Positions 24,430-57,752 of a stretch of DNA of 64,000 nucleotides are shown piece after piece. The DNA comes from an uncultured Methanosarcinales archaeon (GTDB lineage: Archaea; Nanobdellota; Nanobdellia; Woesearchaeales; GW2011-AR4). The notes under the pieces are model-generated. The model saw nothing but the letters and a program-made list of their open reading frames with translations. It did not search any database and was not told where the DNA came from. The position numbers and the translations under genes are program-made. The first letter of the stretch is position 1; each line of letters begins with the position of its first letter. The stretch is from positions 3,554-67,553 of the forward strand of contig CAYVTQ010000001.1 of the NCBI GenBank assembly GCA_964454865.1, given 5' to 3'.

Positions 24430-24683
24430 TTTTGGAATAAAATTAATTTGGTCAGTTATCTTCAATCCGCCTTCGGCATATTTAGTGCGAGGCGTTGCTT
24501 TCCTGCCATGCTCGAAAAGCGACAGACTACCTTGATTGGCTTTTCGGCATCCTGTACAGGATAACGCTCCGCCTCGCCAATTTATTGTAATGAATTCGAG
24601 GCGAAATTTTAATGGCAGTAAAAATTCCGCCGAGTGTAGATTATGTCGCAAAGCGACGGACTAAATCAGATTAATTCCAGAAA
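24430..24683. repeat. MITE-like repeat, family 2 copy a (core GCTCGAAAAGCGACAGACTACCTTGATTGGCTTTTCGGC)
   Basis: Imperfect TIRs TTTGGAATAAAATTAATTTGGTC / GACTAAATCAGATTAATTCCAGAAA; core shared with 52.4 kb and 34.5 kb copies. Confidence 0.6.
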
Positions 24684-24741
24684 GCTAAATAATTATTTTA
24701 AAAGGCAATATTTAAAAATAACAAAAGAATAGCATGCAATC

Positions 24742-25803
24742 ATGGCAAAAATCAAGTTGGTCGTGTGGGATGCTGACAATACCTTATGGGACGGCACTGT
24801 TTTCTACAAGGACAAGGAAAATGTCAGGCTCAAGCCCGGCACAAAGGAAGCCCTGAAGGAGCTTGAAAAAAGAAACGTGAAAAATACAATCTGCAGCAAG
24901 AATTACTATGAGGATGTTGATTCTGTATTGAAAAAATTTGAAATCAGCAAATATTTTGATCACCCCCAGATTGGATGGGGGCTTAAGTCAGAAGCAATTA
25001 AAAAATTGGCGGGGCTGTTCAATGCAGGCTTCAATGAGATGGTTTTCGTGGATGACGATGCATTCCAGCGTGCAGAGGTGCTTTCGCGGATAAATGGAAT
25101 CAATGCAGTCGGCTTGGATGATCCCATAGACATACTGAACTTTGAAGGCATCAGGCCCGACAAGCCCACTGCAGAGGATATAAGGAGGGTCCAGCTTCTT
25201 AAAGAAGACAGGAACAGGAAGCAGGCAGAAAGCGAATTTAAAGGGGACTACAAGGATTTTTTGAGGCAGTGCAGCATGGTGATGAGCATCAGAGGCGTGG
25301 AGGAGGCAGACTGGGAGAGGGTATGCCAGCTGCTCAACAGGACTAATGAGCTGAATATGACCAATAACAGGTACACCATCAGCCAGCTTAGGGAATCATA
25401 CGAAAAAAACAAGGACATAATACTTGTCGTCGAGCTTACCGACAAATTCGGCGATTATGGGCTGATAGCGGAAAGCATCATTGTAAGGAAGGAGGATGGG
25501 TGGTTTATCAGGGACTTAACGGTTTCATGCAGGACAATGGGAAGGGGGATAGGAAGTGCCCTGCTTATTGCGATACTGGGCTATGCCCGGCAGAACAACA
25601 TCAAAAAAGTAGTGGGCATGCTTACAGAAACAGAATCAAACTGGAGAATAAGGCCATTGTATGAGAGGAGGGGATTCAAGAAAGTTTCTGCGGACGGCAA
25701 CAAGACTTTCTATGAGTTTGACCTCAATTCTGAGGAAATGCCGACCTATCCTGATTGGATAAAAGTCAATTTTTTGCTGAAGAAGGAAATTGAAAGTGGC
25801 TAA
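24742..25803 (+). CDS. FkbH-like HAD-IIIC domain fused to GNAT N-acetyltransferase
   Basis: KLVVWDADNTLWDG (FkbH/HAD-IIIC signature) N-terminus; C-terminal GRGIGSALL...RRGF GNAT motifs. Confidence 0.65.
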   Translation: MAKIKLVVWDADNTLWDGTVFYKDKENVRLKPGTKEALKELEKRNVKNTICSKNYYEDVDSVLKKFEISKYFDHPQIGWGLKSEAIKKLAGLFNAGFNEMVFVDDDAFQRAEVLSRINGINAVGLDDPIDILNFEGIRPDKPTAEDIRRVQLLKEDRNRKQAESEFKGDYKDFLRQCSMVMSIRGVEEADWERVCQLLNRTNELNMTNNRYTISQLRESYEKNKDIILVVELTDKFGDYGLIAESIIVRKEDGWFIRDLTVSCRTMGRGIGSALLIAILGYARQNNIKKVVGMLTETESNWRIRPLYERRGFKKVSADGNKTFYEFDLNSEEMPTYPDWIKVNFLLKKEIESG

Positions 25804-26968
25804 TCTCAGGAAAATTTTTTTAAATGCCTTGCTGATGGCTGCAAGCATACTTGCTTTTTTATTAGTTCTTGAGCTGTTCCTAAGGCTTTTTTACCCCCAG
25901 AATCTGAACCCCCTGCTGCTGCCTACTAAAGACAGGGATACGTTTGCCCAATATGATGCGGAACTGGGGTGGTCTTTAAAGCCTGATGCAGAAGCGCCCC
26001 TGTTTTCACATGAATATAATGTATTGGTGAAGCAAAACAGCCAGGGAATGAGGGATAAAGAATACTCCAAGAAAAGGCTGCCCGGAAAAGTTCGAATAGC
26101 TATCACAGGCGACTCATTTGTATGGGGATTCGGTGTTGAAAATAAGGATATATTCACAGAAATAATTGAAAATAAGCTGGGAGAAAAATTTGAAGTGCTT
26201 AATTTTGGAGTCAGCGGCTATGGCACGGACCAGGAATTGCTGCAGTTCAAGTCAAAAATCCTGGATTTCAAGCCGGACGCTCTTATAGTAGCATTTTACC
26301 ATAATGACATAGAAAATATAGCAAACAGCGTGGAATATGGCTATGAAAAGCCCAAGTTCGTGCTTGAAAATGGCAGATTAAAGCTTACAAACATACCTGT
26401 GCCCCAAGTAAGAAGGCAAGAAACAAAATACTTGATAAGGGATTATATCAACTTCTTCCTTTCCCATTACTCCCATTCCTATTCCTTCCTTAAATCAGGC
26501 ATAGCAGTTTTATACGACCGCGCCACGGCGGTTTTTCAGAAGCCCAATGAATATTTTGATACAGAGATATTAAAAAAAGATTATGGAGAAAAATATTCAA
26601 ATGGGTGGGTTTTGTTTGATAATCTCCTCAGGGAATTTAAAGAGACCGGAAAAAACAATAATGTCTCAATAATCCTTGTCAATATGCCTGCAAAGGCGCA
26701 GATAGACAAGAGATTATTCGAGAAAAAATTAGGCATTTACGGCAAATCCGGGGATGATTATGACTTATTCAAGCCTTCCAGGCTGCTGAAGCAATATGCT
26801 GATAAGAACGGGATAATGTTTATTGACCTTCTCCCCACTTTCCTCTCGGAAGATGAGCCTGAGAAGTATTATTTTAAATTTAATGATCATCTAAATGCGC
26901 AGGGAAACGCGTTTGTTGCTGAAGGTATTTACAGGGAGATGAACCCTGTGCTCCAGGAAATTAATTGA
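25790..26968 (+). CDS. Membrane-anchored SGNH/GDSL-family hydrolase
   Basis: N-terminal TM helix; ITGDSFVWG (GDS motif) block I; 14-bp overlap with upstream gene. Confidence 0.55.
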   Translation: MKVANLRKIFLNALLMAASILAFLLVLELFLRLFYPQNLNPLLLPTKDRDTFAQYDAELGWSLKPDAEAPLFSHEYNVLVKQNSQGMRDKEYSKKRLPGKVRIAITGDSFVWGFGVENKDIFTEIIENKLGEKFEVLNFGVSGYGTDQELLQFKSKILDFKPDALIVAFYHNDIENIANSVEYGYEKPKFVLENGRLKLTNIPVPQVRRQETKYLIRDYINFFLSHYSHSYSFLKSGIAVLYDRATAVFQKPNEYFDTEILKKDYGEKYSNGWVLFDNLLREFKETGKNNNVSIILVNMPAKAQIDKRLFEKKLGIYGKSGDDYDLFKPSRLLKQYADKNGIMFIDLLPTFLSEDEPEKYYFKFNDHLNAQGNAFVAEGIYREMNPVLQEIN

Positions 26969-28232
26969 CAATGCGGGCAGTGGGCAGCGGCACAATAAAT
27001 CCTCCCTTATACCCTTTCTGCCTGAGCTTAGGGATCAATTCATCCGCTATATGCCATGACAGCAGCAGGGCGTATTCCGGCTGGTCCTCAAAAAGCCTTG
27101 ACTCTTCAACAACAGGAATCAAAGTGCCGGGCATGCATTTCCCTATTTTGTGCGAGCCGCTTATTTCCACAACGCAGTCAACAACAGCATCGTCTATTCC
27201 AGTATAATTTATCAGCGTGCTTGCCCGCGACGGGGCTCCAACGCCATAAATGCGCCCGCCCTGTCTTTTGATGTTAAAAAGCAGAGAGCTGAGCTCAAGT
27301 TTTGAAAGGGCAGCCCTGTTCCTGAACTCCAGCAGGCTTTTCTTGCCCAATACAATTTCTTTTTCCCTGGCAAGCTGGCTATTTACTGTTTCTTTAACCT
27401 TATACTCCCCTTTTCTGGCGGCATACACCCTTATAGAGCCTCCGTGCGTGGGTATTTGCCTGGCATGGATTATCTCGAGGCCGTGCCTTTCCAGCAGGTA
27501 TTTTAAGCTGTGCAGAGAATAGTACCTTATGTGCTCATGGTAAATAGTGTCGTATTGCAGCGACTCGATAAACGGAAGCAGGTAATGCGATTCCGAGATG
27601 AACACTCCTCCTTTCGCAAGCAAGTCTGATATCAAATCGACAATCTCATTGACATTTCTGATGTGCGCAAAAACATTTGTCGCTGTTATTATTTTTGCCT
27701 TGCCATGCTCTTTTTTTATTTTGCCGGCGGCCTTGCCGCCAAAGAAATCTATGATGGTGGGTATGCCTCTGGCTATTGCAATATTTCCTATTTTTTCAGG
27801 AGTGATGCCCAAAACCCTGCTGGAGCCTTTGAAATTGCTCAGCAGATTGCCGTCGTTGGAGCCTATATCAATGACCAAATCGTCATGGCTTAGGCTGGCA
27901 ATTGACCTGCATTCCCGATAGAGCTCGGCAAAATTATCCCTCAGTATCTTTGTAGTGCTGCTGGTGTATGGATACTCCGGGGGGAAAAGTATTTTCGGGC
28001 TGACTATCAATCCGAGCTGCACAAGGTGGCAGTTCCCGCAGTACAGCAGCTGCGCAGGATAACTCGGCTGCTCATGCGGCCTTTCGCCGACATTGTGCAT
28101 TGCATTTACAGGCGGAAGATACCCAAGAAAGAGTATGCTGTCTAGCTTTGAATAGCCGCATGACTGGCACTTGTCAACGACCGTGCTGGTAAAATCCTCA
28201 TCCTGTTGGTTTTTTTGAGGCATTTTCATCAT
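26961..28232 (-). CDS. NDP-hexose C-methyltransferase, second paralogue
   Basis: CQSCG...CGNCH zinc ribbon, DIGSNDG SAM motif; start moved to MMKM to limit overlap with upstream epimerase (ORF as given runs to 28307). Confidence 0.7.
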   Translation of the reverse strand: MMKMPQKNQQDEDFTSTVVDKCQSCGYSKLDSILFLGYLPPVNAMHNVGERPHEQPSYPAQLLYCGNCHLVQLGLIVSPKILFPPEYPYTSSTTKILRDNFAELYRECRSIASLSHDDLVIDIGSNDGNLLSNFKGSSRVLGITPEKIGNIAIARGIPTIIDFFGGKAAGKIKKEHGKAKIITATNVFAHIRNVNEIVDLISDLLAKGGVFISESHYLLPFIESLQYDTIYHEHIRYYSLHSLKYLLERHGLEIIHARQIPTHGGSIRVYAARKGEYKVKETVNSQLAREKEIVLGKKSLLEFRNRAALSKLELSSLLFNIKRQGGRIYGVGAPSRASTLINYTGIDDAVVDCVVEISGSHKIGKCMPGTLIPVVEESRLFEDQPEYALLLSWHIADELIPKLRQKGYKGGFIVPLPTARIVN

Positions 28233-29178
28233 ACCATTTTGCAGTAATGCCAATTCCCTTTTCCAGGCTTGTTCCCGGTTTGTATCCCAATTTTTTAATC
28301 TTTGCAATGTCGGGGCACCGCCTCAGCACGCTCCCTTTCTTCAGGCTTCCGGGCTCGACAATCACATCTTTCCCGAAATATTTGCCGACTTCCTTGGCAA
28401 CATCTTCTATTGAGGCTTCATCCATTGTCCCTATATTATAGGTCTCCAAATGCTTTCCTTTTTTCAGTACCAGCATAAGTCCGTCAATAAAATCATCAAT
28501 GTATACAAAAGCCCTCATTTCCCTTCCAGTGCCCTCAATCGGAAATTTTACCGGATTCTTATTATTGCTCCTGCATATTTCCTTCATGCGCAGAACAAAC
28601 TGGGGGATTGCGTGCTCCCATCCCATATTGGGGCCGTATACATTATGAGGCCTGAAGATTATCACCCTGTCAAAATATTTTCTGCCGTAGTTTATCGCCA
28701 TGATCTCGCTGATTATCTTGCCGCCGGCATAGGAATATCTGGGATTGAGAGGATCAGGTATGGACAGAGGCACTGTTTCATCTGTAGGGATTGCATCCGG
28801 CTTCTGATACACTTCAGAGCTTGAAGCCAGCAGCAGCTCTTTGACTTTGTTCCTGATGCAGCCGTCAATGACATTTATAATTCCCTTTACGCCGACGTCC
28901 AAAACCAATTCCGGCATTTTATAAAAAAATTCCGTCCCGTTGATAAAAGCCAGATGAAAAACACCGTCAATATCCTTGCAGGCGGCATTCACAGCATTTG
29001 CGTCCCTTATGTCACCCTCCACAATCTCTATTTTACTTCCTATACCTCCTATTCGATCGAATGATCCCCTGGATGCATTATCCATGACCCTGACCTTATA
29101 CCCTTCCGCTATCAGGCGCCTGACAAGAGCGCTTCCGATAAATCCTGCCCCGCCTGTAACAAGATATTTTTTTGCCAT
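28198..29178 (-). CDS. NAD-dependent epimerase/dehydratase (extended SDR)
   Basis: VTGGAGFIGSAL Rossmann, YAGGK catalytic motif. Confidence 0.8.
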   Translation of the reverse strand: MAKKYLVTGGAGFIGSALVRRLIAEGYKVRVMDNASRGSFDRIGGIGSKIEIVEGDIRDANAVNAACKDIDGVFHLAFINGTEFFYKMPELVLDVGVKGIINVIDGCIRNKVKELLLASSSEVYQKPDAIPTDETVPLSIPDPLNPRYSYAGGKIISEIMAINYGRKYFDRVIIFRPHNVYGPNMGWEHAIPQFVLRMKEICRSNNKNPVKFPIEGTGREMRAFVYIDDFIDGLMLVLKKGKHLETYNIGTMDEASIEDVAKEVGKYFGKDVIVEPGSLKKGSVLRRCPDIAKIKKLGYKPGTSLEKGIGITAKWYDENASKKPTG

Positions 29179-29240
29179 TTTTTAAATTATGAGAGGGTAG
29201 TTGAGGCATATTTAAATATTAGTCTTTTCTACTCCAAGCT

Positions 29241-29984
29241 ATGCAAAACAAAAAGCAGGAAGCCGCTTATTTTGATGAATTCACATCAGAAAAGCCCTGG
29301 AATGCATTCACAAAAAAAACATACCGGAAGATAGTCAGGCTATTCCTCCTGCTTGCCAATCCAAAAAAGGATGATATGATTATAGACATGGGATGCGGGA
29401 CAGGAGAGCTGGCTTATGAGATCTATAAAAGGGGCCATGCGAATATTATGGGGCTCGATATTTCAAAAAACTGCATAGCCATGGCTAAAGAAAAATATAA
29501 AGGAATAAAGTTTGAAGTGAGAGATGTAGAGAATACTGGGCTTAAGAATGATTCTGCCGACGCTCTTTTTTATTGCGGCATACTGCATCACTTTCAGCAT
29601 CAGTCAAGTCTGGCAAAAGAGGCCCGCAGAATCCTGAAAAAAGGAGGGAAAATCTTCGTCTTCGAGCCCAACGCCTCAAACCCTGTCTTATGGCTTTTCA
29701 GAAACAAAAAATCGCCTGTAAGCTCGAAAAAGCTCAAGACACCCAATGAGGAATTTCTGGATTTGGGGCGGATTAAGTCAGCGCTCGAAAAAGAAAATCT
29801 CAGGGCCATGGAGATCGGATGCATCTCGGGAATAAGCTACTCAACAGACCACTTCAAAAAGCTGATGCCTTTTCCCTTTCATTACAGCGCTTATTTCTAC
29901 AACATTTTTGACGCCGCGCTGAACTGCACTCCATTAAGGAAGAAAAGAGGATCTTTCATCTATGGGTGCTTTGAGAAGGTTTAA
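29241..29984 (+). CDS. Class I SAM-dependent methyltransferase
   Basis: IDMGCGTGEL motif I, GLDIS motif II. Confidence 0.7.
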   Translation: MQNKKQEAAYFDEFTSEKPWNAFTKKTYRKIVRLFLLLANPKKDDMIIDMGCGTGELAYEIYKRGHANIMGLDISKNCIAMAKEKYKGIKFEVRDVENTGLKNDSADALFYCGILHHFQHQSSLAKEARRILKKGGKIFVFEPNASNPVLWLFRNKKSPVSSKKLKTPNEEFLDLGRIKSALEKENLRAMEIGCISGISYSTDHFKKLMPFPFHYSAYFYNIFDAALNCTPLRKKRGSFIYGCFEKV

Positions 29985-30778
29985 TTTTGATTTTTCTTCC
30001 TTATCGAATCAATCTTCTCCGGCACTATCAAAGCAGCTTTCCTTCCTTTTGCCCTGTGCAGCCCTTTCAGCCCCCGGAAAAACCATTTTGAGTACTCGAT
30101 AACCCACGGGCCGAGCCTGAAGCTCGATTTTCCGCCGTAAAACCTGTTGATTGAGATGATTGGCACTTCTCCAAGCTTCAATCCCATTCGCTGCACTTTT
30201 ATTGCCATCTCAAATGCCACAGCCCAGCCAACTGGCTTTGATTCTATGCTTAGTTTTTCAAACAAAGGGCGCCTGAACATCTTGACTCCCAAAGTCAAGT
30301 CAGTAAGCGCAGAGCCTGAAATGGCATAAAAAAGCCGGTTTGCAATCCTTGATAAGAGCCTGCTTGCAAAGTAGCCGCCCAGTATCCTCCCGCCATGCGC
30401 ATATCTTGTGGCGCTGACAAAATCGCATCCCTTATCCATGAGCCGTATCATGTCGTCAACTGCCAGTATAGGCCCTATATCGTCCGCCGCAATTATCAGC
30501 ACATAGTCCCCTGCTGCGGCTGCAACGCCGGATCTTATGGCGTTTGGAATTCCCCTCCCAAGCTGGTTGTGCACCAATTTCAGGCCGGGATAATCTGGCT
30601 GCATTGATTTTACAACAGGAATGCTGTCATCATTAGGGATATCATGCACTATCAATACCTCATGCGGCACTTCTATGGCGGCTCTGAGAATCCTGAGCAT
30701 CATCTTCAGGTTGATGCCTTCATTAAAAACAGGTATGAGAAGCGATAATTTTATATTATTTGATTTGTTTTTTGCCAT
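29981..30778 (-). CDS. Glycosyltransferase family 2
   Basis: LSLLIPVFNE start, DDS/DxD region of GT-A fold. Confidence 0.75.
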   Translation of the reverse strand: MAKNKSNNIKLSLLIPVFNEGINLKMMLRILRAAIEVPHEVLIVHDIPNDDSIPVVKSMQPDYPGLKLVHNQLGRGIPNAIRSGVAAAAGDYVLIIAADDIGPILAVDDMIRLMDKGCDFVSATRYAHGGRILGGYFASRLLSRIANRLFYAISGSALTDLTLGVKMFRRPLFEKLSIESKPVGWAVAFEMAIKVQRMGLKLGEVPIISINRFYGGKSSFRLGPWVIEYSKWFFRGLKGLHRAKGRKAALIVPEKIDSIRKKNQN

Positions 30779-30780
30779 TT

Positions 30781-31542
30781 TTAATTTGCGGATTCCTGCC
30801 TTTTGTATTTCTTCCAGAGGCTTGTATCCAAAGAGGAGTCTTTCGCCATGCTGAAGCTGACCTGCTTTAAAATCTCCTTAAATTCGCAGGGCTCCAGCGA
30901 AGGCTTGAATTCCTTATACCTCTCATAATCGGATTTTCTTTCATCACCTATGTTTATTGTGCCTATAAAACTGCTATTGAGCATTGCATGGATTGCTTTG
31001 ACAAGCCCTTTTATCTGCATTTTGGAGGAGTATGCATCAGTTGCGGACTCGTCAAATCTTATAGCGCCGGGATCGAAAAAGCTTGTGCGTATAATGCAGA
31101 AATTATCCAGCATATTTACAGCGCATTCGCCTGCAAGCTTGGTCCAGCCATAGTTATTGTAAGGGATGGCCGCGTCTTTTTCCGAATAATTCCCCCTTGC
31201 TCCGGAATAAACGCCGTCAGTTGAAATAAAAATAAATCTGGCGCTCCCCTGTTTTTTTTCCTTGAGCTTCAGGGCCTCAATCACCAAGTTGGAAGTCCCG
31301 ATAACGTTAGTGCCGATTGATTTAACGGGATCTGACTGGCAATCAGCCATTCTTGCGATTGCGGCGCAGTGGATTATTGCGCCAAAATCATTCTTTTCAA
31401 AAAACCTGCTTATTGAAGACTGGTCTGTTATATCCATCTTTTCATGGGAAGGCGCCAGAATGCCGGAAAAATATCCTGATTTTATTATTTCCTGCCCAAG
31501 CCTGCCTGAGCCGCCGGTTAAAAGTATGTTTTTATATTGCAT
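30781..31542 (-). CDS. NAD(P)-dependent sugar-nucleotide reductase/epimerase (RfbD-like SDR)
   Basis: LLTGGSGRLG Rossmann, YGWTK catalytic pair; 253 aa. Confidence 0.6.
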   Translation of the reverse strand: MQYKNILLTGGSGRLGQEIIKSGYFSGILAPSHEKMDITDQSSISRFFEKNDFGAIIHCAAIARMADCQSDPVKSIGTNVIGTSNLVIEALKLKEKKQGSARFIFISTDGVYSGARGNYSEKDAAIPYNNYGWTKLAGECAVNMLDNFCIIRTSFFDPGAIRFDESATDAYSSKMQIKGLVKAIHAMLNSSFIGTINIGDERKSDYERYKEFKPSLEPCEFKEILKQVSFSMAKDSSLDTSLWKKYKRQESAN

Positions 31543-31559
31543 TTTAAGATAGCCATGCT

Positions 31560-32777: not shown

Positions 32778-32881
32778 CTTCTCTTCCTCGATATTGAGGA
32801 TAATTTAAATAACTTACTGATTTCTTTTTCGAAAAGCTTTTAATAAAATAGGATATTCAAAATAATAATCAGGCGGATGCT

Positions 32882-34348
32882 TTGATAATGATCCAAAAAA
32901 AATTTATAAGGAATGCCAGCTTAAACACTAAAAAAAATGCAGGGCCAATTCTCTTTCTTATTGTTATATTCGGGCTGGCATTTCGGCTAATCTTCTTTTC
33001 AGGCGTCGGAACTTCAGACGACCTTGCTTACAGCAAATATGCCTATAATATCCAGAAGGGCATTGATCCCGGGAGCACGCTCACTTTATCTGCAAGGCTC
33101 GGTCTTCTTTACCCTACAGCCCTTTCCTACCATCTTTTTGGAGTTAATGACTTCTCATCAGTGCTATTTGTGCTTATTGCTGCAATGGGAAACATTATTC
33201 TGGCATATCTTTTCGGAAATCTGCTGGGCAGCAAAAAAATCGGGCTGATTGCAGCTTTTTTATTGGCGATATTTCCTTTAGAGGTTGTGCATTCCACTGA
33301 ATTGCTGGCTGACCTGCCCTCCTCTTTCTTCATGGCATTAGGGGCTTATGTATTCCTGTATTCCGAAAAGAAATCCAAGCCGAAGCCGTATTATTTTCTT
33401 TCGGGGGCTTTAATCGGGATAGGCTATCTGATAAGGGAAAGCGCAGTTCTTATTGTGCTGTTCTTTCTGATGTATGCTATATATACAAGAAGGATCAAAA
33501 AAGAGCATCTGCTTGCTGCAGCAGGCTTTATTTTGATATTTACCGGCGAGATTTTAGCATTTTACAGCCTTACCGGCAACCCTTTGTTTAGATTTACCGC
33601 AACGCAGGACTATCTTATCAAGGCTTCAATAGCCCATAACTATTTTGGGAGGCTTTCATTCCCGCAGGGGCTGTTCCATTACCCTTATGTCATATTAACA
33701 AATAGCATCATCTCTTTTTTTTATGCCTTTATATTTGCCGCTATAATCTATTTCTTAAAAGTCAGGAGAAAAGAAACTTACATATTGCTGTTATGGTTCA
33801 TCCCCTTACTTTTGTATCTGAGCTTCGGCTCTTCAAGCTTTTCCATGTATATCCCATTTAAGGCTGAACCAAGATACCTTTCAGTAATAACGATGCCTGG
33901 AATTTTATTGCTGGCTTTTTTCTTTTCTGAAAAAAACAGGGCAATTTTAAGAATGATATTTCCTTTGGGCATGGCTGTTCTGCTCATCAGCTCTGTCATG
34001 TCCGCCTTTACAAATCTAAACAACAATGATGCTTCTGACAATCTGAAACTTATATACCCCTACCTCAAGGATTCAAAGAAGGCTGTTTATACAGATGAAA
34101 GGTCAAAACAGGTGCTGGAGTACCTTTCCGGATATAAGAATACTGGTGTGAGGGCATTTCCAGAAAATCTCAAGGTGGCCGGAGATTCTTATATCATAAT
34201 AAATAAGGCAATGATAGGAGGGCTGATGGAATCGAATGCAAATATCCAATTTCCGGCAGAAGTCAGTGACCCACCTAAAAAATGGATAGTGCTGAAAGAC
34301 TTGAAAAAAGAAGATCGCGAGAATGCCATTGTCTATTATGCGCCATGA
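32882..34348 (+). CDS. GT39/GT83-like (PMT/ArnT-type) polytopic glycosyltransferase
   Basis: About 11 predicted TM helices with N-terminal loop DD motif (GTSDDLAY); 488 aa. Confidence 0.6.
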   Translation: MIMIQKKFIRNASLNTKKNAGPILFLIVIFGLAFRLIFFSGVGTSDDLAYSKYAYNIQKGIDPGSTLTLSARLGLLYPTALSYHLFGVNDFSSVLFVLIAAMGNIILAYLFGNLLGSKKIGLIAAFLLAIFPLEVVHSTELLADLPSSFFMALGAYVFLYSEKKSKPKPYYFLSGALIGIGYLIRESAVLIVLFFLMYAIYTRRIKKEHLLAAAGFILIFTGEILAFYSLTGNPLFRFTATQDYLIKASIAHNYFGRLSFPQGLFHYPYVILTNSIISFFYAFIFAAIIYFLKVRRKETYILLLWFIPLLLYLSFGSSSFSMYIPFKAEPRYLSVITMPGILLLAFFFSEKNRAILRMIFPLGMAVLLISSVMSAFTNLNNNDASDNLKLIYPYLKDSKKAVYTDERSKQVLEYLSGYKNTGVRAFPENLKVAGDSYIIINKAMIGGLMESNANIQFPAEVSDPPKKWIVLKDLKKEDRENAIVYYAP

Positions 34349-34370
34349 TTTTGAGAGGTAAGCGTCATTC

Positions 34371-34627
34371 GGCTTCATCCAAAATTCGCAAAACAAGCGA
34401 GGCAAGATTTTGAATCTTGCCAAATCGGCGCTCAGGTTGGCAGCTTCGAGCCCAGCACAGTATATGATGCAGTATCGTTGATGTCCCGTATGGAGCGTCC
34501 CCTTCAACTCTGTTTAAGTGCTTGATAAATGGGCTCGACTTGCTCGAAAAGCAACAGACAGCCTTGATTAGCTTTTCGGCACCGCCTGAGGCGGTAATGC
34601 TGCCAACCCATTTTTTGGATGAATCCG
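34371..34627. repeat. MITE-like repeat, family 1 long copy (TIR GGCTTCATCCAAAA) carrying inserted family 2 core
   Basis: Matches the 163-bp copy at 55103..55265 end to end, plus two internal insertions, one equal to the family 2 core. Confidence 0.65.
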
Positions 34628-34642
34628 CATCATTCAAAAGCT

Positions 34643-39658: not shown

Positions 39659-40716
39659 ACCTGCCGCTCAGAATGAGGCTTTTTGCCTACAGGATTTTAT
39701 CCACTCCGTATGGAAGAGTTATTTTGCGCATTTTTTCGCATTTAATTCATGCCAAGGGAATGGGGCTATTCAAGCAAGCTAGTGCCAAAAAGCCGTTTAT
39801 AGTTTCTATAACGATTGACACGGAATCCGGCTATGTGGATGCGGACGAAAGAAGAGTATGGCAGAATGAAAATCCGAGAGCTTTCATGGGGTTCTATAAA
39901 GGCATTAAAAACTGGAAGGACCTGTTCAGAAAATACGGCGTGAAATCCACATTTTTTGTGTCCACCCAATGCTTTGATTCAAATGGAAGCGACCATGAAA
40001 AAATAGCCTCAGCGCTTAACGAGGCTGTTTCAGAGGGGCACGAGATGGGACTTCACATGCACCCCGACAGCGACTTTGCGCTGCAGAAGGCTATCGGGAA
40101 AAAATTCAGCCGGACAAGCGCGATTTATTATGATACAGAAACAAAAAAGCAAATGATAATGGAAGCAAGGAAGATGCTGATTAAAAATATCAGGAACCTC
40201 AGGAAAGTTGTGAGCTTTAGATGGGGCAATTGGGGGCTTGACTCCGGAGCTGTTGAAGCGCTGCACCAGCTTGGCTTTGAAGTGGATTCTTCGGCCACTC
40301 CGGGAATAAAAGGGCATATCGGAGACGGAATGGATTATGACTGGGCGAATGTGGACAGCCATTACCCATGGCTTCTCTCCACAGGCAACTATAAAGACGT
40401 AAAGAAACCCGATTCAGGCGTATTGGAGCTGCCCATAGCGACTTTCAGCCTTTTAGGGCTGACGCTGCGCGCAGACCCTGTTAATCTTGAGCTGTTAAAA
40501 GGCTCCTTTGACTATTATTACAAGAACTCCGACAGGAGCAAAAAGCCTTTTGTGTTTGTAGTCATATCACACAGCCCCGAGTCTACATATATTGACGGGA
40601 GAAAAACCAAAGTTATAGTGACCATGGAGGATTTCATAAAGCATGCATCAAAGCGCGCTGATGTCAGATTCGTGCCTCTTGATGATGCAGCTCATTTCCT
40701 GCGGCAGGATACATAG
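39655..40716 (+). CDS. Polysaccharide deacetylase-like (CE4-type) protein
   Basis: TIDTE and HEMGLHMH (HxxxH) motifs; ATGA start/stop overlap with GT4 gene suggests translational coupling. Confidence 0.45.
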   Translation: MNLPLRMRLFAYRILSTPYGRVILRIFSHLIHAKGMGLFKQASAKKPFIVSITIDTESGYVDADERRVWQNENPRAFMGFYKGIKNWKDLFRKYGVKSTFFVSTQCFDSNGSDHEKIASALNEAVSEGHEMGLHMHPDSDFALQKAIGKKFSRTSAIYYDTETKKQMIMEARKMLIKNIRNLRKVVSFRWGNWGLDSGAVEALHQLGFEVDSSATPGIKGHIGDGMDYDWANVDSHYPWLLSTGNYKDVKKPDSGVLELPIATFSLLGLTLRADPVNLELLKGSFDYYYKNSDRSKKPFVFVVISHSPESTYIDGRKTKVIVTMEDFIKHASKRADVRFVPLDDAAHFLRQDT

Positions 40717-41351
40717 CAGTATGTAGCCCATCTGCCTGTATTGTCAAAAACATCAAGCAAGCTCAGGGACTGCGCCAGAAAATAAAAGGGATACAATCCG
40801 AGCTTTAAGACAGGAGATAAAATGCCCAAAGATTTTGGAAGCATAAATCTTGCTCCCTTAATGGCGGAATGGATGACCACTGCAGGCACATTAAAAATTC
40901 CCCCGACAGTTCCTGATTCTTTGACTATGAAATCCTTTCCGACTATCTCTTTCAATCCATATTCGGTGAACCTGTACTTGTCATAAGGCGCGTCATGGAG
41001 GGGGTAAATGAAAGGGGCAAGAATAAAAAGCGTGCCGCCCTTTTTCAGCACTCTTGCAGCCTCTTCCAATACTTTGCGGGGATCATCCAGATAGTAAAGC
41101 GAATTTATGCTTATCACAGCATCAAAATGGCTTTTGGCGAAGGGCAGCCCTTTGTTTGCATCCCATTCAACATCAGCCCTTTCTGTCCCGGATTTGTCAA
41201 GGCCGATTATCCTGCCGCCAATAAGTTTGTGGTATTGAGGATCATTTCCGCATCCTATGTCAAGAATTGTCCCATTAACATTTCTGAAATTTCTTCTTAT
41301 TATCCGCGATATTTTTTCCCTTATTATGAAAAATTCCGCTTTCATAGTCAC
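40692..41351 (-). CDS. Class I SAM-dependent methyltransferase (Methyltransf_11-like)
   Basis: ILDIGCGND motif I, LKKGGTLFI post-II. Confidence 0.7.
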   Translation of the reverse strand: MTMKAEFFIIREKISRIIRRNFRNVNGTILDIGCGNDPQYHKLIGGRIIGLDKSGTERADVEWDANKGLPFAKSHFDAVISINSLYYLDDPRKVLEEAARVLKKGGTLFILAPFIYPLHDAPYDKYRFTEYGLKEIVGKDFIVKESGTVGGIFNVPAVVIHSAIKGARFMLPKSLGILSPVLKLGLYPFYFLAQSLSLLDVFDNTGRWATYCYVSCRRK

Positions 41352-42238: not shown

Positions 42239-42285
42239 TGGCTCGTAGGAACAAAATACACTTTATATATGTTTCTTAATAGGTA

Positions 42286-42580
42286 GCTTTGTGTAAAAAG
42301 CAGGTTTGGCATCTTCATTTGCGGGCATCTTCAAAGATTCAAGCAGGCATGCTCGAACAAAGTTCGGCACCGCATGGGTGGAAAAGGAAATTGCAGCGGA
42401 GGAATCGTTGTTCCTCCTGACGTAGCAAACTTGTTTGCTACGCAATGGGAAACTACGGAGTAGTTACCGAAAATCCAATCAGGATTGTCTGTTGATTTTC
42501 GAGTATTTTTGCTTTATCGCTACACATCAAAATGCGAACTGATGCCAAAACCCGAGCAAAGCGAGTTTTTACACAAAGCC
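42286..42580. repeat. MITE-like repeat, family 3 copy a with about 30-bp imperfect TIRs (GGCTTTGTGTAAAAA...GGTTTGGCATC)
   Basis: Core about 90% identical to 57548..57705; contains two perfect hairpins. Confidence 0.65.
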
Positions 42581-42598
42581 TTAATAGGTAACAAAAAC

Positions 42599-48776: not shown

Positions 48777-48907
48777 TGGTGGTTGGTTTTTTGGAAATTA
48801 TTTAAAGGTTATTACGCCTAGCCAAGTCAATACCCTCAATCATATATTCCGTCCCTTTTTAAAGCATCTTTAGACCGGCACAACCCCCAACAATGATTAT
48901 GGGCGGC

Positions 48908-50221: not shown

Positions 50222-50296
50222 CTGCAGTTAATTTAAAAATGTTTCCCGGCAATCGGCAGATTAAGATACCGATTTTTTAGAATATAGCGCGGATTG

Positions 50297-51187: not shown

Positions 51188-51202
51188 TTTGCTCGATATT
51201 CC

Positions 51203-52312
51203 TCATTTATCAAAATTTTTCAAGATTATGCTTACAATTCTTTCGGCAGCCCTGCCGTCCCATAGCTCAGGAGCAGATTTGCCGATCTTTATTTTCCCGT
51301 CTATTATCTCCCCTGACTTTTTCAGTACATTTGTATTATCAGTGCTTACTAACAAATTGGTCCCCTTGCCTGATGTAATCGGCCTTTCTGTGCTGTCCCT
51401 CAAGGTTATGCACGGAACGCCCAAAATAGTCGTTTCTTCCTGCAAGCCGCCGGAATCTGTCAGTGTAAATTTGCTGTTGCTCACAAGGCACATAAAATCA
51501 AGATATCCCAGCGGTTCTGCCAGAACAACATTTTTCATTTTGCCCAGCCTTCCGATGAGTTTAAAGGCATGAAGATTCTTTTTTGTCCTTGGATGAGCAG
51601 GGAATACAATCTTAATTCTTTCCTGCAGACTTTCCAGCAGCGAGATGATCCTCTCCAAACTCTCCTTGCTGTCTACATTGCTGGGCCTGTGCAAAGTAAC
51701 GGCGCAATACTCATTTTTTTTTAAATTCAGCTTTTTGAGTATTGCCGATTCCTTAGATTTTTCCCTGTGGCTCAGCAAAGTGTCTACCATAACATTGCCA
51801 ACAAAAAATATTTTGCCCTTATTGATTCCTTCGTTAAGCAGGTTGGAGTTTGCGCTTTCTTCCGTTGTAAAAAGAAAATTACTTATTCTGTCAGTCAGCA
51901 TTCTGTTGATCTCTTCAGGCATTTTCCAGTCAAAGGATCTCAGCCCGGCTTCGACATGGGCAACTTTTATCCCAAGCTGCCTGGCGACAAATGCCCCTGC
52001 AAACGTGGAATTGACATCCCCCACTACGACAACTAAATCCGGGCTTATCCTGCTCATCACCTCTTCCAATTTTATGATTGCATTACCTACTTGCTCGCCA
52101 TACGTGCCGGAGCCGACTGAAAGGTTTATATCTGGCATCGGAAGCCCAAGATCATCAAAAAATGAGCCGCTCATTTCTTTGTCATAATGCTGCCCTGTAT
52201 GGACTAAAGTATGGTTAATCCCCTTATGCTTGTTGAATTCCGCTATCAACGGGGCTATTTTGATGAAGTTCGGCCTCGTTCCGACCACGCTTAAAATCCT
52301 GACCATGGCCAA
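51203..52312 (-). CDS. wecB: UDP-N-acetylglucosamine 2-epimerase (non-hydrolysing, WecB family)
   Basis: VGTRPNFIKIAPL and HTGQHYD motifs. Confidence 0.85.
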   Translation of the reverse strand: MAMVRILSVVGTRPNFIKIAPLIAEFNKHKGINHTLVHTGQHYDKEMSGSFFDDLGLPMPDINLSVGSGTYGEQVGNAIIKLEEVMSRISPDLVVVVGDVNSTFAGAFVARQLGIKVAHVEAGLRSFDWKMPEEINRMLTDRISNFLFTTEESANSNLLNEGINKGKIFFVGNVMVDTLLSHREKSKESAILKKLNLKKNEYCAVTLHRPSNVDSKESLERIISLLESLQERIKIVFPAHPRTKKNLHAFKLIGRLGKMKNVVLAEPLGYLDFMCLVSNSKFTLTDSGGLQEETTILGVPCITLRDSTERPITSGKGTNLLVSTDNTNVLKKSGEIIDGKIKIGKSAPELWDGRAAERIVSIILKNFDK

Positions 52313-52339
52313 TACTAATTGGGAAGGCTATAAATAGGT

Positions 52340-52545
52340 TTTCATGAGGAAGGCAACGTTAAGATGCAGGCGGCATCATCATTGCGGGGCTCTTCCGCCA
52401 ATACATAAAGCCGACGGAGGGGATGCTCCATACGGGAAGCCGACGGAGTTGGGCCGAAAAGCTAATCAAGACAGTCTGTCGCTTTTCGAGCATGCCGGCT
52501 ATCCTGTTAAATACATACAGCCGAGCCTGATGCTGCCCGAGCGTT
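52340..52545. repeat. MITE-like repeat, family 2 copy b (inverted orientation)
   Basis: Reverse complement matches the 24.5 kb core, and also GGGGATGCTCCATACGGG shared with family 1. Confidence 0.55.
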
Positions 52546-52592
52546 AGCGAGATTTTCTACTGATTCAAATAAAATTCCATATTTGCCTCGGA

Positions 52593-53300
52593 TTAACAAG
52601 ACATGGCAAAGAAATTTGACAATCCATGCTTTATCGGATTGAAGCAAATCAGCTCATTAAACCATATCTTTATGTATCCTAATAAGGGTATTCTCAATAC
52701 TGCCTTGCCTATGACATGGCTTTCATTAATGCTCGTTTCATCCATTGTGCTGTCTTTTATCGAAGCCTTGTTATGGTCGCCTTTTGTGTGAAAGAAATAA
52801 TCCCCCCCATTATCCTGCCATTTCCGGACTACCCTGTGAATGATGGGATCCGGCTTTGTGCTTCTGAAGACTATAACACTTCCAGCTTTAATTTCTGCCG
52901 GATTGGCGCCTTTCAGCACCATGATATCTCCCTTATTAAATCCGTTTTTGAACCTAAATCTGCTGAACTGCTCCTTGGTTATGCCAATCTGCTCATACCA
53001 GTCTCCGCACATTTCCCAATAGTCATCATAACCTATCCTTTTTTTCGCATCAAATTCCTTCCCGCATAAAACCATCCTGTTCCTGAAATCGGGGCTTGCG
53101 CTGTGCTCCATGCTCTCAGACACGACAGCGACAACAGGATGGGTAGTCTGGAGAAAAAAGCCCAGCCCCGGGTAGACTATGAACTTGATAAGCACAAAGG
53201 CAAGAACTACATTTACAAGCCAGCTCCATACGCTGTCATCTTCCCATATAAACTTCCAGATTTTTTTCAGAGTCTTCTTAAAATCACCAGCCATGCTCAA
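52593..53300 (-). CDS. Signal peptidase I (archaeal/Sec11-type S26 family)
   Basis: N-terminal TM anchor, SESME (Ser box), IHRVV (His box), TKGDHN box E. Confidence 0.75.
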   Translation of the reverse strand: MSMAGDFKKTLKKIWKFIWEDDSVWSWLVNVVLAFVLIKFIVYPGLGFFLQTTHPVVAVVSESMEHSASPDFRNRMVLCGKEFDAKKRIGYDDYWEMCGDWYEQIGITKEQFSRFRFKNGFNKGDIMVLKGANPAEIKAGSVIVFRSTKPDPIIHRVVRKWQDNGGDYFFHTKGDHNKASIKDSTMDETSINESHVIGKAVLRIPLLGYIKIWFNELICFNPIKHGLSNFFAMSC

Positions 53301-53343
53301 AATTTATATAGTCTAAATAAAAAGCTTTTGTTTATGTTAAACA

Positions 53344-53487
53344 GCTTTTGGCGAAGGCTAGTAAAACGAGGGTTGCCATTGCAATTTCCTTTTCCACCCA
53401 TGTGGTGCCGAACTTTGTTCGAGCATGCTGTCTGGAATTTTTGAAGATGCTCGCATAATTGATGGCAACCTCCCCTTCGCCAAAAGC
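53344..53487. repeat. MITE-like repeat, chimeric: family 3 5'-half (inverted) between GCTTTTGGCGAAGG...GGTTGCCAT TIRs
   Basis: Reverse complement of 53385..53460 matches 57548..57615 almost exactly; clear terminal inverted repeats. Confidence 0.6.
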
Positions 53488-53503
53488 CGAGTAGTAAGTT
53501 AAT

Positions 53504-53923
53504 ATGCATAAAGACTATTTTCAGGGAATACTGCAGCTCAGGAATGTTGATAATGAGGTCATTGACTTTGTCAGCAGGCAGGCTGCAAAAAGGCAGGATG
53601 TTTTTATTGCAAAGATTGAGAAAGTAAGAAACGGCATCGATATATATTTTTCCTCTCAGCAGTACCTGAAGGCTTTGGGCAGGAAGCTGCAGGAGCATTT
53701 CAGAGGGGAGCTTGTCATAAGCTCCAAGCTTTTCACAAAGAGCAGGACAGGGGAGGATCTGTACAGGGTGAACGTGCTTTTCAGGCAGGCAAAATTTAGG
53801 AAAGGTGATATAATAACCTACAGGGGCAGCAAGCTCAAAATCATCAGAATGGGAAACAAAGTTGCATGCAGATATGTTGATACAGGCAAAAGCATCACGC
53901 TCAGCTATGACTCATTAAGATAG
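53504..53923 (+). CDS. Hypothetical conserved protein (139 aa, basic)
   Basis: Intact ORF; no secure domain assignment. Confidence 0.4.
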   Translation: MHKDYFQGILQLRNVDNEVIDFVSRQAAKRQDVFIAKIEKVRNGIDIYFSSQQYLKALGRKLQEHFRGELVISSKLFTKSRTGEDLYRVNVLFRQAKFRKGDIITYRGSKLKIIRMGNKVACRYVDTGKSITLSYDSLR

Positions 53924-55073
53924 ACTCTTTTTCTTTTTTGTAGTCTATTATTATTTTTCTGAAAACTGACTTTTTGTCAATCTCCCTGTCCAGAAATTCC
54001 TTTCTCACGACAGCAAATGAGCCCAAGTCGTATATTGGCAGCTTATCCGCGCTTATTAAGGTAAAATGAAGCTCATCTTCTGCCTTTCTGCTCAGGGGCT
54101 TTTGGTATACTATAACATTTATCTTTCCTTTTATCTCTTCTATAGTTCTCCTGCTTGCGATGTTTGCATCTTCAACAAGCAGGATATCCTCTTTACCTAT
54201 CTTCAGAGTCATTTTCTTGTTCTCAAGCTCAAGATAGCCCAGATTCCTGATCTTTTTTAATATATAATAGCTCTTGGAGTCCAGAACAATGCTGCTCAAA
54301 TTCATTATATCCTGCTTTAAAGAGGATATCCTGCTGTCTTTTTCCATCAATAGGCTTGCATATGACCTTATCCTTTCTTCTTTGAACTTAAGAAGGGAGC
54401 TGATTTTTTTGCCATAATCAATGCTCCTTCTTTCTATTATTGTTTTGGATTTTTCATTTTTTAGCCTTAGGATGTACTTCCTCAGAAAATATACTTCCTT
54501 CTCATAATTTCTCATCTTATTCAGAACTCTTTCAATATTAATCTGAGGCTGTTCAGGGCTTTCTGTTTTCGCCGTGCCAATCTCTTCTTTCGGCGCCAAA
54601 TAATCAACAGCGTGCTTTATGCTCATCCCCTTGCTTATGACAAGCTCCTTTACAGATTCCCTATCCCCAAAATCAATCTTGTCTATCTTTCTGATCAAAT
54701 GCCTTACCTCATTGAAAGCAAAAAATGCAGAAGCCAGTGCGTCATTCTCATGGCAGTTTTTTACGCTAAACATTTTTGACATTTCCCTTTTTTCCGCTAT
54801 TGAAAGGTCTTCTTTGGGATTGATGGTTTTTGCGCCTAATTTTGCCGCGAACCTATGCACCAAATCAGGAACTTTTCCTTTGTCAGTGCCGGCAATAACA
54901 ACCCTTCCAAATTTCGCAACTTCACTTATAAGCCACGACAGGCCAAGATTTTTCGAAGAATCAACCGCAACCAAATTCCCGCTTATATCAAGAATCGCAT
55001 AGCCTGTTGTCGTGCCTGGGTCTATGCCGACAATGAGGAGTTTTCTTTGCTGCATTTGCAACAAAACAATCAT
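53901..55073 (-). CDS. DUF460-family protein (RNase H-like fold)
   Basis: LLIVGIDPGTTTGYAILD N-terminal signature; coiled-coil C-terminus. Confidence 0.6.
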   Translation of the reverse strand: MIVLLQMQQRKLLIVGIDPGTTTGYAILDISGNLVAVDSSKNLGLSWLISEVAKFGRVVIAGTDKGKVPDLVHRFAAKLGAKTINPKEDLSIAEKREMSKMFSVKNCHENDALASAFFAFNEVRHLIRKIDKIDFGDRESVKELVISKGMSIKHAVDYLAPKEEIGTAKTESPEQPQINIERVLNKMRNYEKEVYFLRKYILRLKNEKSKTIIERRSIDYGKKISSLLKFKEERIRSYASLLMEKDSRISSLKQDIMNLSSIVLDSKSYYILKKIRNLGYLELENKKMTLKIGKEDILLVEDANIASRRTIEEIKGKINVIVYQKPLSRKAEDELHFTLISADKLPIYDLGSFAVVRKEFLDREIDKKSVFRKIIIDYKKEKESILMSHS

Positions 55074-55102
55074 CTGTAATTTAAAAAGTTTTAGATAATT
55101 TT

Positions 55103-55265
55103 GGCTTCATCCAAAATTCACATTCGCAAGTTGGCAGCTTCAATCCCAGCGCAGCATATGAAGCAGTATCGTTGATGTCCCGTATGGAGCATCCCCTTAA
55201 CTCTATTTAAGTAATTGGTAAATGGGCTCGACTTCAAGGCTGCCAACCCATTTTTGGATGAAGCC
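55103..55265. repeat. MITE-like repeat, family 1 short copy (TIR GGCTTCATCCAAAA / TTTTGGATGAAGCC)
   Basis: 163 bp with 14-bp near-perfect TIRs; matches 34371..34627. Confidence 0.65.
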
Positions 55266-55281
55266 GATAATTTTTTAATGA

Positions 55282-56162
<881 letters not shown>

Positions 56163-56188
56163 ATTATTGGAGCTAAACTACTATTTTT

Positions 56189-56446
56189 CTAGCCATGCCT
56201 GGTCTTAAGGGTAAGAAGAGACAAAGTGAGCACGAAACTCACGATGTTGGCGATTAGTATTGGCATATCTTTTGTCAATATTCCATAAGTAAGCCACAGC
56301 GCGACCCCGAAGACCAGCAACAGCAGCATTGCCATTGACAAATCCTTCGTTTCTTTTGTTTTCCAGCTTTTGAAAACCTGCGGCACGAAAGATGCCGTCG
56401 TGCATATTCCTGCTGCAAACCCAAGTAAAGTCATCAATTCAGCCAT
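56189..56446 (-). CDS. SemiSWEET (PQ-loop) sugar transporter
   Basis: 85 aa, three TM helices, FVPQV PQ-loop motif and LWLTYG. Confidence 0.65.
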   Translation of the reverse strand: MAELMTLLGFAAGICTTASFVPQVFKSWKTKETKDLSMAMLLLLVFGVALWLTYGILTKDMPILIANIVSFVLTLSLLTLKTRHG

Positions 56447-56447
56447 C

Positions 56448-57185
56448 TTAAACCCTCCTGAAAAAGCTCAAAAAGCCGGAATGCCCCAGCATCCTCGACT
56501 TCGGCCTCACTTTTCTCTGCTCCACTTCCCACTCCCTTTCTATCATCTCCAATGTTTTGGCATGGATGAAATCATTCCTTTTGCAGGCGGCATTCGCCAT
56601 ATCCGAAACCTGGACTATAGTGGGGCTGTAGGAAACAAGAAAACCCCCTACTTTTAATGCTTTTGAGCATGAATCCAGAGCTTTCCAAGGCTCCGGCACG
56701 TCCAGAACAATGGTGTCAGCATCTTTCTCATCAATCTCTTTGTAAATATCCTTATTTTTAACCCTCAGATTCTTCAATCCGAGGAATTCAGCATTCTTTT
56801 TTACAATCTCTATGAAATCCTCCCTGATGTCGTACGTCACAACTTCTTTTGCCATATTCGCGAGAAAGCATGCCAATGCGCCGCTGCCGGCCCCTGCATC
56901 CACAATTTTACTTTTCTTGTTAATGCCTGTCTCTGCTAGGATTGCCCCTACGTCCTTCAGGGGGATTATCTGCGCATCCCTCTTTATTTTCTGGTAAACG
57001 TCTATGAAAAACGGGGAAAAAATCATAAATTCAGTATTTGTATTTGACATCAGCTTTGAGCCGTCTTTTTTAGCCAAGTCTGATTTCTTGATATAGCCGA
57101 ATTCCGTATGCATATCTCCACTAGTGTCTTTTACAAAGAATTTCCTGCCTTCTTTTGTGAGCAAAACTCTCTTTATTCTTAGCAT
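56448..57185 (-). CDS. trmI: tRNA (adenine-N1)-methyltransferase TrmI (GCD14 family)
   Basis: IVDAGAGSGAL motif I and DLPEPW-type motif (LDVPEPW). Confidence 0.75.
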   Translation of the reverse strand: MLRIKRVLLTKEGRKFFVKDTSGDMHTEFGYIKKSDLAKKDGSKLMSNTNTEFMIFSPFFIDVYQKIKRDAQIIPLKDVGAILAETGINKKSKIVDAGAGSGALACFLANMAKEVVTYDIREDFIEIVKKNAEFLGLKNLRVKNKDIYKEIDEKDADTIVLDVPEPWKALDSCSKALKVGGFLVSYSPTIVQVSDMANAACKRNDFIHAKTLEMIEREWEVEQRKVRPKSRMLGHSGFLSFFRRV

Positions 57186-57229
57186 TAAATAAAAAAAAGA
57201 AATTCAGTTTAAAAACTTAATTGAATTAT

Positions 57230-57532
57230 CTATCTTTTCTTTTTCCCGCTCGCTGCCGGCATATCGCAATGCCCGCATCCATTAGGCTTGGCTAAGTGCA
57301 TAAGTCCTTTTAATATTATCAGGACGCCCAAAGTATGCCATATATACCTAGGCTGCCATACAGCTACTGCAAGCACTACAATGCCTGTCACCAGCATCTT
57401 GGCTCCCTGGCACTTCATACATATACTCTCACAACAACCCATTAATACCACCTCTTTATTGGCGTTTTTAGGCAGCCTACTATATAAATGTTGGGGTTTT
57501 GCCGAGGTTGGTGCGAAATTGAAGGTTGTCAT
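57230..57532 (-). CDS. Small Cys-rich membrane protein (start probably at internal MGCCES)
   Basis: Two TM helices, CCESICMKCQ and CGHC motifs; 5' end touches repeat TIR. Confidence 0.3.
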   Translation of the reverse strand: MTTFNFAPTSAKPQHLYSRLPKNANKEVVLMGCCESICMKCQGAKMLVTGIVVLAVAVWQPRYIWHTLGVLIILKGLMHLAKPNGCGHCDMPAASGKKKR

Positions 57533-57752
57533 GCTAATATGCGATCATCTTCAAAACTTCCAGACAGCATGCTCGAACAAAGTTCGGCACCACATGGGTG
57601 GAAAAGGAAATTGTAGCGGAGGAATCGTTGTTCCTCCTGACGTAGCAAACTTGTTTGCTACGCAATGGGAACCTACGGAGTTGGTACCGAACTCTGTTTG
57701 AGTATTTTTGCAATCATGTTCCACTTTATAATGTGAGCCGACGGCAACCTTA
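57521..57752. repeat. MITE-like repeat, family 3 copy b
   Basis: Core 57548..57705 about 90% identical to the 42.3 kb copy; outer imperfect inverted repeats GAAGGTTGTCATGC / GAGCCGACGGCAACCTTA. Confidence 0.6.

Follow-up and report, generated by a model that had tools for sequence, protein, structure and literature searches.

In this study, we describe eight related intergenic elements of 105–296 bp in a 64-kb stretch (the window) of a DPANN archaeal chromosome of the Woesearchaeota type. They are very probably non-autonomous DNA transposons, making up a superfamily of MITEs (transposable elements of the miniature inverted-repeat type). The basis of this assignment is their terminal inverted repeats (TIRs), target-site duplications (TSDs), multiple copies and non-coding nature, together with sites that are empty in a relative and the exchange of modules. 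An earlier reading of the letters alone (the sequence-only reading) had proposed a mosaic MITE-like superfamily of seven copies, and the 9-bp direct repeats, the empty sites and the segment exchange reported below support that proposal. Self-comparison and a hairpin pattern place related repeats at all seven sites; the count has to be raised by an eighth element at 8421–8525, beyond the range noted then. We name the elements by their position in kb (e8, e24, e34, e42, e52, e53, e55 and e57). Together they cover 1,714 bp, 2.7% of the window, at a density of about 125 per Mb (8 in 64 kb).

Comparison of the window with itself, a check proposed earlier, yields long matches and not low-complexity stretches of less than 20 bp: they span 76–187 nt at 86–97% identity, with a best E value of 3e-57. 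Thus 34433–34541 resembles 55127–55234 (89%), 42306–42471 resembles 57526–57691 (89%), and 53382–53471 corresponds to the reverse complement of 57523–57613 (93%). A 37-nt degenerate hairpin pattern matches the window five times against 0.00 expected in shuffles (0 of 100 shuffles). The region 53408–55193 is reproduced at 100% identity by an independent assembly, a 1.8-kb Logan contig of the same population (run SRR12113384), whose ends fall inside e53 and e55. Since assemblers break at multi-copy sequence, these stops hint at further genomic copies. The strings quoted in the sequence-only reading are all present as stated: the TIR GGCTTCATCCAAAA is exact at 34371/34613 and 55103/55252, GCTTTGTGTAAAAA at 42286/42566 and GCTTTTGGCGAAGG at 53344/53474, and the shared string CCGTATGGAGCATCCCC lies at 34486, 52419 (minus strand) and 55180. 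The elements are listed below, where H1+H2 denotes a module of two adjoining hairpins in a long or a short form, cores A and B are the two core types, and fractions give matching positions between the 9-bp flanks.

e8, 8421–8525, plus strand: 105 bp; perfect 12-bp TIR GGCATTGAAAAG / CTTTTCAATGCC; no TSD (3/9); one long H1+H2 module at 8441–8494 and a subterminal ATGGCAACC at 8500–8508.
e24, 24430–24682, plus strand: about 253 bp, with uncertain boundaries; degenerate 27-nt TIR (74%); no TSD; one long H1+H2 module at 24509–24561 and a partial second H1 half at 24646–24663.
e34, 34371–34626, plus strand: 256 bp, just upstream of aglB; with duplications 34362–34635, flanks GCGTCATTC (34362–34370) and GCATCATTC (34627–34635), 8/9; tips GGCTTCATCCAAAA / GGATTCATCCAAAA; inner inverted repeat GGTTGGCAGC / GCTGCCAACC; core A and one long H1+H2 module at 34541–34594.
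e42, 42285–42580, unstranded: 296 bp; with duplications 42276–42589, flanks TTAATAGGT at 42276–42284 and 42581–42589, 9/9; tips A/GGCTTTGTGTAAAAA, then GGTTTGGCATC; foldback with a short H1+H2 on the plus strand (42350–42381), a central perfect hairpin pair and a long H1+H2 on the minus strand (42452–42505).
e52, 52346–52571, minus strand: about 226 bp, decayed, with uncertain boundaries; weak inverted repeat GGCGGCATCA / TGATGCTGCC; long H1+H2 on the minus strand (52439–52492) and a 20-nt core A fragment (52418–52437) between repeated GCCGACGGAG.
e53, 53343–53488, minus strand: 146 bp; tips A/GGCTTTTGGCGAAGG, then GGTTGCCAT on both sides; no TSD (3/9); one short H1+H2 module on the minus strand (53394–53425).
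e55, 55103–55265, plus strand: 163 bp, between the divergent DUF460 and ribK genes; with duplications 55094–55274, flanks GATAATTTT at 55094–55102 and 55266–55274, 9/9; GGCTTCATCCAAAA tips at both ends; core A alone, without an H module.
e57, 57504–57772, unstranded: 269 bp; with duplications 57495–57781, flanks GGTTTTGCC at 57495–57503 and 57773–57781, 9/9; right tip GGCTTCGGTGAAAAT and decayed left tip GAGGTTGGTGCGAAAT; e42-type core, with short H1+H2 modules on the plus (57570–57601) and minus (57672–57704) strands.

The search for TSDs, also proposed earlier, found 9-bp direct repeats at four of the six clear-ended elements; in e34, e42, e55 and e57 they abut the TIR tips. Two million random pairs with the same spacings within the window give a chance of P = 2.3e-4 per pair for a match of at least 8/9. 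The decayed left tip of e57 was located with the aid of the repeat, and its right tip is a normal family tip abutting the repeat; the right copy of this duplication overlaps the stop codon of a gene for a 783-residue protein.

At three of the sites, a relative is free of the insertions. A locus from a Logan assembly (L011), whose DUF460 protein is 62% identical to that of the window, has the same gene order (820-residue protein, small protein, GCD14 methyltransferase, lumazine synthase, RibK, DUF460, NMD3 and a 232-residue protein), and its spacers at the e57, e55 and e53 sites measure 97, 96 and 40 bp and hold no element. Beside the insertion points, AAAAGCTTTTTATTTAGACTATATAAA, ATCTAAAACTTTTTAAATT.CAG and ATTTTATATAG...AAAGAGGTG are conserved between the two loci, as are the TATA-like and Shine–Dalgarno-like motifs next to the element-free sites. 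In a second relative (L010), e53 is likewise absent from the orthologous site. Both relatives are distant (DUF460 59–62% identical), and exact empty sites are unreadable at this divergence. Further relatives' loci around the topoisomerase VI genes show no element copy, and no relative emerged when genome contigs were scanned with the DUF460 protein as anchor. Run SRR12113424 contains a related DUF460 gene (50% identical).

Clear termini are found in six of the eight elements. The sequence-only reading had given TIRs to every copy; those at 24.4 and 52.4 kb show no more than degenerate termini. The TIRs are perfect over 12–14 bp in e8, e42, e53 and e55, carry one mismatch in e34 and are imperfect in e57. 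Aligned inward, the ends are bipartite, with a tip of about 15 nt (GGCTT...AAAA), a spacer of 2–12 nt and the motif GGTTG(G/C)CA(T/G)C. The tip occurs as GGCTTCATCCAAAAT, GGCTTTGTGTAAAAA, GGCTTTTGGCGAAGG, GGCTTCGGTGAAAAT or GGCATTGAAAAG. A GGC start was counted at 9 of 12 ends; the ends named as starting otherwise are the right end of e34 (GGA), the left ends of e42 and e53 (AGC) and the left end of e57 (GAGG).

Between these ends, the elements are mosaics, and self-comparison and module mapping bear out the exchange of segments among core types claimed earlier. The elements e34 and e55 have core A in common, and e52 contains a 20-nt piece of it. Core B is common to e42 and e57, its left arm recurs in e53, and it contains the perfect hairpins GGAGGAA...TTCCTCC and GTAGCAAAC..GTTTGCTAC. 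The two arms of the foldback element e42 can be aligned with each other, and e53 and e8 look like one arm joined straight to the opposite end, the arm in e53 being apparently of the e42/e57 type. Of the 18 differences that separate e42 from e57, thirteen lie within the first 41 nt, the other 125 nt being 96% identical, a clustering that fits either a recent exchange or constraint on the core. The same 18 differences split 6/7/5 over the codon positions in every frame, and this lack of codon-position bias led us to reject a coding element. Six-frame translations of all elements found no match among 5.8 billion proteins.

A recurrent component of the elements is the H1+H2 module, of which nine copies, recognized with the regular expression T[G/A]CTC[G/A]AA...TTCGG[C/T]N, are present in seven of the eight elements, one or two in each, in both orientations and on different backbones. 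The module bounded by CATGCTCGAA...TTCGGCAC, described earlier as shared by all, is thus common to seven and absent from the 55.1-kb element. Five copies have the long form, distinguished by an additional 4-bp stem and by an 18-nt loop containing the invariant ACAGAC...C.T.ATT; the four short copies have an AAA or AGA loop. Over the copies, pairing in the H1 stem reaches 97%; a bulged T is invariant, and two pairs have changed in a compensatory way (G-C to A-U and G-C to U-A). Directly after it, the 4–5-bp stem of H2 is kept through at least five different stem sequences (CCACC/GGTGG, CCGCC/GGCGG, ACTAC/GTAGT, TCCT/AGGA and CC(G/A)C/GTGG), although its computed pairing is 57%, a value depressed because the short forms are out of register by one column. 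The module of e34 is replaced by 5 nt in its 89%-identical sister e55, and the same position holds the long form in e42 and the short form in e57; elements that are otherwise homologous have therefore gained, lost or exchanged modules.

A covariance model built on the module (R1) scores the nine copies of the window at 36–82 bits, with nothing else there above noise. Applied to 140 kb from relatives, it picks up a single partial copy, at positions 1–40 of L010 (30.6 bits, E about 4e-5), which belongs to another Woesearchaeal lineage and another sample (ENA ERZ4903137). This copy reads TTGATTAGCTTTTCGGCA followed by TCACCTGCGGTGA; 18 nt are identical to e34, and H2 carries a further compensatory change (TCACC/GGTGA). 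The module is therefore not confined to the source genome, and blastn of the elements against the same 140 kb gave nothing beyond this partial copy. Judged on these sequences, either the elements travel from one Woesearchaeal lineage to another, or constraint acts on the module.

A number of observations weigh against the MITE assignment. No transposase is encoded in the window, where every sizeable open reading frame (ORF) was scanned, so that an autonomous partner was not found there. TSDs are lacking at e8, e24, e52 and e53, of which e8 and e53 have good TIRs, and the tips diverge among subfamilies beyond what is usual for the substrates of one transposase. A strict 28-base module pattern has no match in GTDB species genomes or JGI metagenomes, nor a relaxed 22-base pattern in JGI metagenomes or IMG/VR. 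The only insertion sequence (IS) seen in a relative has ends unlike those of the elements. It is a complete 1.46-kb IS at 8466–9927 of L010, adjoining the DUF460 gene in the place that ribK and e55 take in the window, with a 14-bp TIR (CAGTATCTCCGAAA), a 5-bp duplication (GTTGT), a 316-residue DDE_Tnp_1 transposase and a DUF2080 ORF; its unrelated ends and 5-bp TSD led us to reject it as the parent. As to the parent's identity, the right tip of e42 (GGCTTTGTGTAAAAACTC) agrees with the IS903 TIR at 14 of 18 positions, including the first eight bases, a match that is short and, alone, insignificant given the thousands of known IS ends; in addition, IS903 lacks the subterminal GGTTGCCA motif. Further negative results are the absence of a short-form module pattern from IMG/VR and of blastn matches to the elements in phage and plasmid collections, and no further TIR copies bracket a gene in the window.

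With these points in mind, a parent in the IS903 group of the IS5 family can be put forward tentatively, from the GGC tips, the 9-bp duplication and the 14/18 tip match. GGC tips and a 9-bp duplication are described as hallmarks of that group (PMC8431375), and all 27 annotated IS families are reported from the phylum that contains these archaea (PMC13343696). IS903 itself was checked on an annotated plasmid copy (1,057 bp, 18-bp TIRs GGCTTTGTTGAATAAATC); tblastn with its transposase found no match in the window or the relatives' loci. A link to IS1 through GCTGCCAAC was dropped, the motif presumably having the opposite orientation relative to the tip. The likeness to IS903-group MITEs extends to the 9-bp duplication, the GGC start of most tips and the short match of the right tip of e42, whereas the window elements differ from them in the second subterminal motif GGTTG(G/C)CA, the archaeal host, tips that vary by subfamily and, as far as was seen, the lack of a transposase partner.

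Under the MITE assignment, each element would be a short stretch of non-coding DNA lying between bipartite inverted ends, which a DDE transposase encoded elsewhere in the genome, acting, we infer, in trans, would bind in order to excise or copy it. Insertion at a 9-bp staggered cut, followed by gap repair, would leave the 9-bp direct repeats. As the genome is compact, surviving insertions would sit between genes, in short gaps where spacers of 40–100 bp would lengthen to 200–400 bp and false ORFs would arise. Subsequent decay (as in e24 and e52), internal loss (e53 and e8) and swapping or loss of segments would produce the mosaic of cores. H1+H2 would have been part of the ancestral arm, and may have been kept as an aid to transposition, or tolerated or used by the host.

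The module is also at the center of the alternatives. Its nine copies on different backbones and in both orientations, the 97% pairing of H1 with two compensatory pairs and an invariant bulged T, the H2 stem kept across at least five sequences, its presence in e34 where e55 has 5 nt, the interchange of long and short forms between e42 and e57, and the partial copy in another lineage with a compensatory H2 change could all mean that H1+H2 is the functional unit, merely spread by the MITE backbones: a structured RNA, a single-stranded DNA element under selection (cis-regulatory or stabilizing, or a protein-binding hairpin) or a small nested mobile element. We consider this rather unlikely. Neither a TSD nor a clean junction marks the module as an insertion; the A/T-rich boxes upstream stand at inconsistent distances, with no TATA-like box at a fixed spacing, and a promoter ahead of the H modules was dropped on these grounds; G-T pairs favor the module strand in one arm copy (e42a) and the opposite strand in e52; and only two orientations relative to neighboring genes are informative. 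Moreover, the copies are few and kin by descent, which makes the covariation counts statistically weak (double-change pairs number 5 against 3.6 in shuffles), and stable hairpins are general among MITEs (PMC10969869). We give the same low credence to the related proposal that H1+H2 is a selected structural element riding several MITE backbones and common to Woesearchaeal lineages; such an element could be a host regulatory or processing signal spread by transposition, or the recognition hairpin of an undescribed archaeal hairpin-dependent mobility system nested in DDE-type MITEs.

The imperfect H1 hairpin with its conserved extrahelical T, and the two inverted module copies in e42 and e57, which recall REP doublets, could instead point to REP/REPIN-like or IS200/IS605-derived hairpins, which a Y1 (HUH) transposase would move in single-stranded form through recognition of the bulged hairpin, IS200/IS605 being the commonest archaeal IS family (PMC13343696). 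This is very improbable, as such elements lack TIRs and TSDs, whereas four window elements have both, exactly at their outer ends; e55 has a 9-bp TSD and no H module at all, the window contains no Y1_Tnp or TnpB gene, and no omega-RNA or HEARO-type Rfam match was found. Strongly negative folding energies (z from −2.3 to −8.3) and an intergenic location ahead of operons would suit paralogous small structured RNA genes, or riboswitch-like leaders, immobile at conserved positions. We hold this to be highly unlikely, and the TSD flanks and the empty orthologous sites, where neighboring promoters are conserved, largely refute RNA genes of this kind. Both strands fold equally well (z from −1.5 to −8.3), as expected of inverted-repeat DNA, and Rfam 15 gave nothing at gathering scores in the window and nothing at E ≤ 10 inside the elements. 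For chance low-complexity similarity or an assembly artefact, we found no supporting point, and the length, identity and E values of the self-matches, the absence of the pattern from 100 shuffles and the exact independent assembly of 53408–55193 make it practically negligible.

Pneumococcal BOX and Neisseria Correia elements are short, intergenic and built of interchangeable modules, with stable hairpins, and can affect the expression of their neighbors. The window elements resemble them as short intergenic hairpin elements of exchangeable modules, but differ in sequence, host and target duplications. REPs and REPINs, mobilized by RAYT transposases, are likewise conserved imperfect intergenic hairpins, sometimes in inverted doublets (PMC2817692); they lack the TIRs and target duplications that the window elements possess. 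MITEs in general are familiar from bacteria and some archaea as typically intergenic elements with stable hairpins that depend on IS transposases (PMC10969869, which also mentions BOX and SPRITE elements). A census of 183,232 genomes places a Woesearchaeal genome, with 105 MITEs per Mb, among the densest archaeal cases, with 146 for Altiarchaeum (PMC11602168). The MITEs of its DPANN genomes share with ours the host group, a density similar to the 125 per Mb of the window, an intergenic location and taxon specificity; the census is automated and without element anatomy. MITEs at a very high density have already been reported from a Woesearchaeal genome (PMC11602168).

The window consists of a glycan-synthesis island and housekeeping genes. 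It encodes topoisomerase VI A and B, the STT3/AglB oligosaccharyltransferase, a CTP-dependent riboflavin kinase and NMD3, together with a long series of sugar-nucleotide, glycosyltransferase and methyltransferase genes, at a G+C content of 36–46%. Named homologues of the topoisomerase VI A and DUF460 proteins all carry the annotation Candidatus Woesearchaeota, Nanoarchaeota or Nanoarchaeia. The neighboring genes had been called correctly in the sequence-only reading (STT3/AglB, Epimerase_2/WecB and the CTP-dependent riboflavin kinase), as had the heptose set (GmhA/HddA/GmhB/HddC-like). Of the positions it gave, e34 lies just before aglB and e55 next to ribK, but the 52.4-kb copy is found upstream of the minus-strand gene wecB and not after it.

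Several side observations were made in these loci. No tRNA was detected in the window. Another locus (L002) contains, at 12268–12420, a tRNA-like gene that is canonical at its 5' and 3' ends (GGGCTAGTAGCTCAGCTTGG ... GGGGGTTCGAATCCTCCCTGGCCCG), with about 90 nt between them, no ARAGORN match and 19 bits with the Rfam tRNA model; it is probably an intron-rich tRNA, in which case the zero tRNA calls of the window may be unreliable. Two DegT/DnrJ-type aminotransferase genes (17292–18419 and 18412–19560) are adjacent paralogues of about 69% DNA identity, and C-methyltransferase paralogues lie at 9140–10465 and 26961–28307. The 783-residue protein (57781–60132) has no Pfam match, and its syntenic 820-residue counterpart in L011 also has no domain match. 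The 16-mer GGCTTTTGGCGAAGGG, the right tip of e53, recurs exactly at 41128–41143 inside a Methyltransf_11 gene (40692–41351, minus strand), where it encodes the LPFAKS part of the S-adenosylmethionine-binding motif; this second occurrence has a chance expectation of about 1e-4 and no flanking similarity on either side.

All together, the elements are a fresh member, or a small set of subfamilies, of an already known type; the general phenomenon is well documented, and only the hairpin module might hold something new. For annotation, the elements create false ORFs and false 5' extensions. In agreement with the spurious ORFs claimed earlier, false or 5'-extended ORFs traverse them, for example at 34103–34507 (minus strand) and 53103–53444 (plus), and others run through them at 53297–53698 (minus) and 57288–57701 (plus). 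The ORF of an AAA/MoxR-type ATPase (7415–8527) runs into a MITE, its true start being probably internal, at a methionine near 8370, and that of a small Cys-rich protein (57230–57532) enters another, with a probable start at MGCCES (57445), which matches the L011 orthologue. The elements also break assemblies. From a biological point of view, they show that active transposon families, at about 125 copies per Mb, are tolerated in a streamlined DPANN genome, and the copies, lying between promoters of the surface-glycan island, could alter expression or promote recombination.

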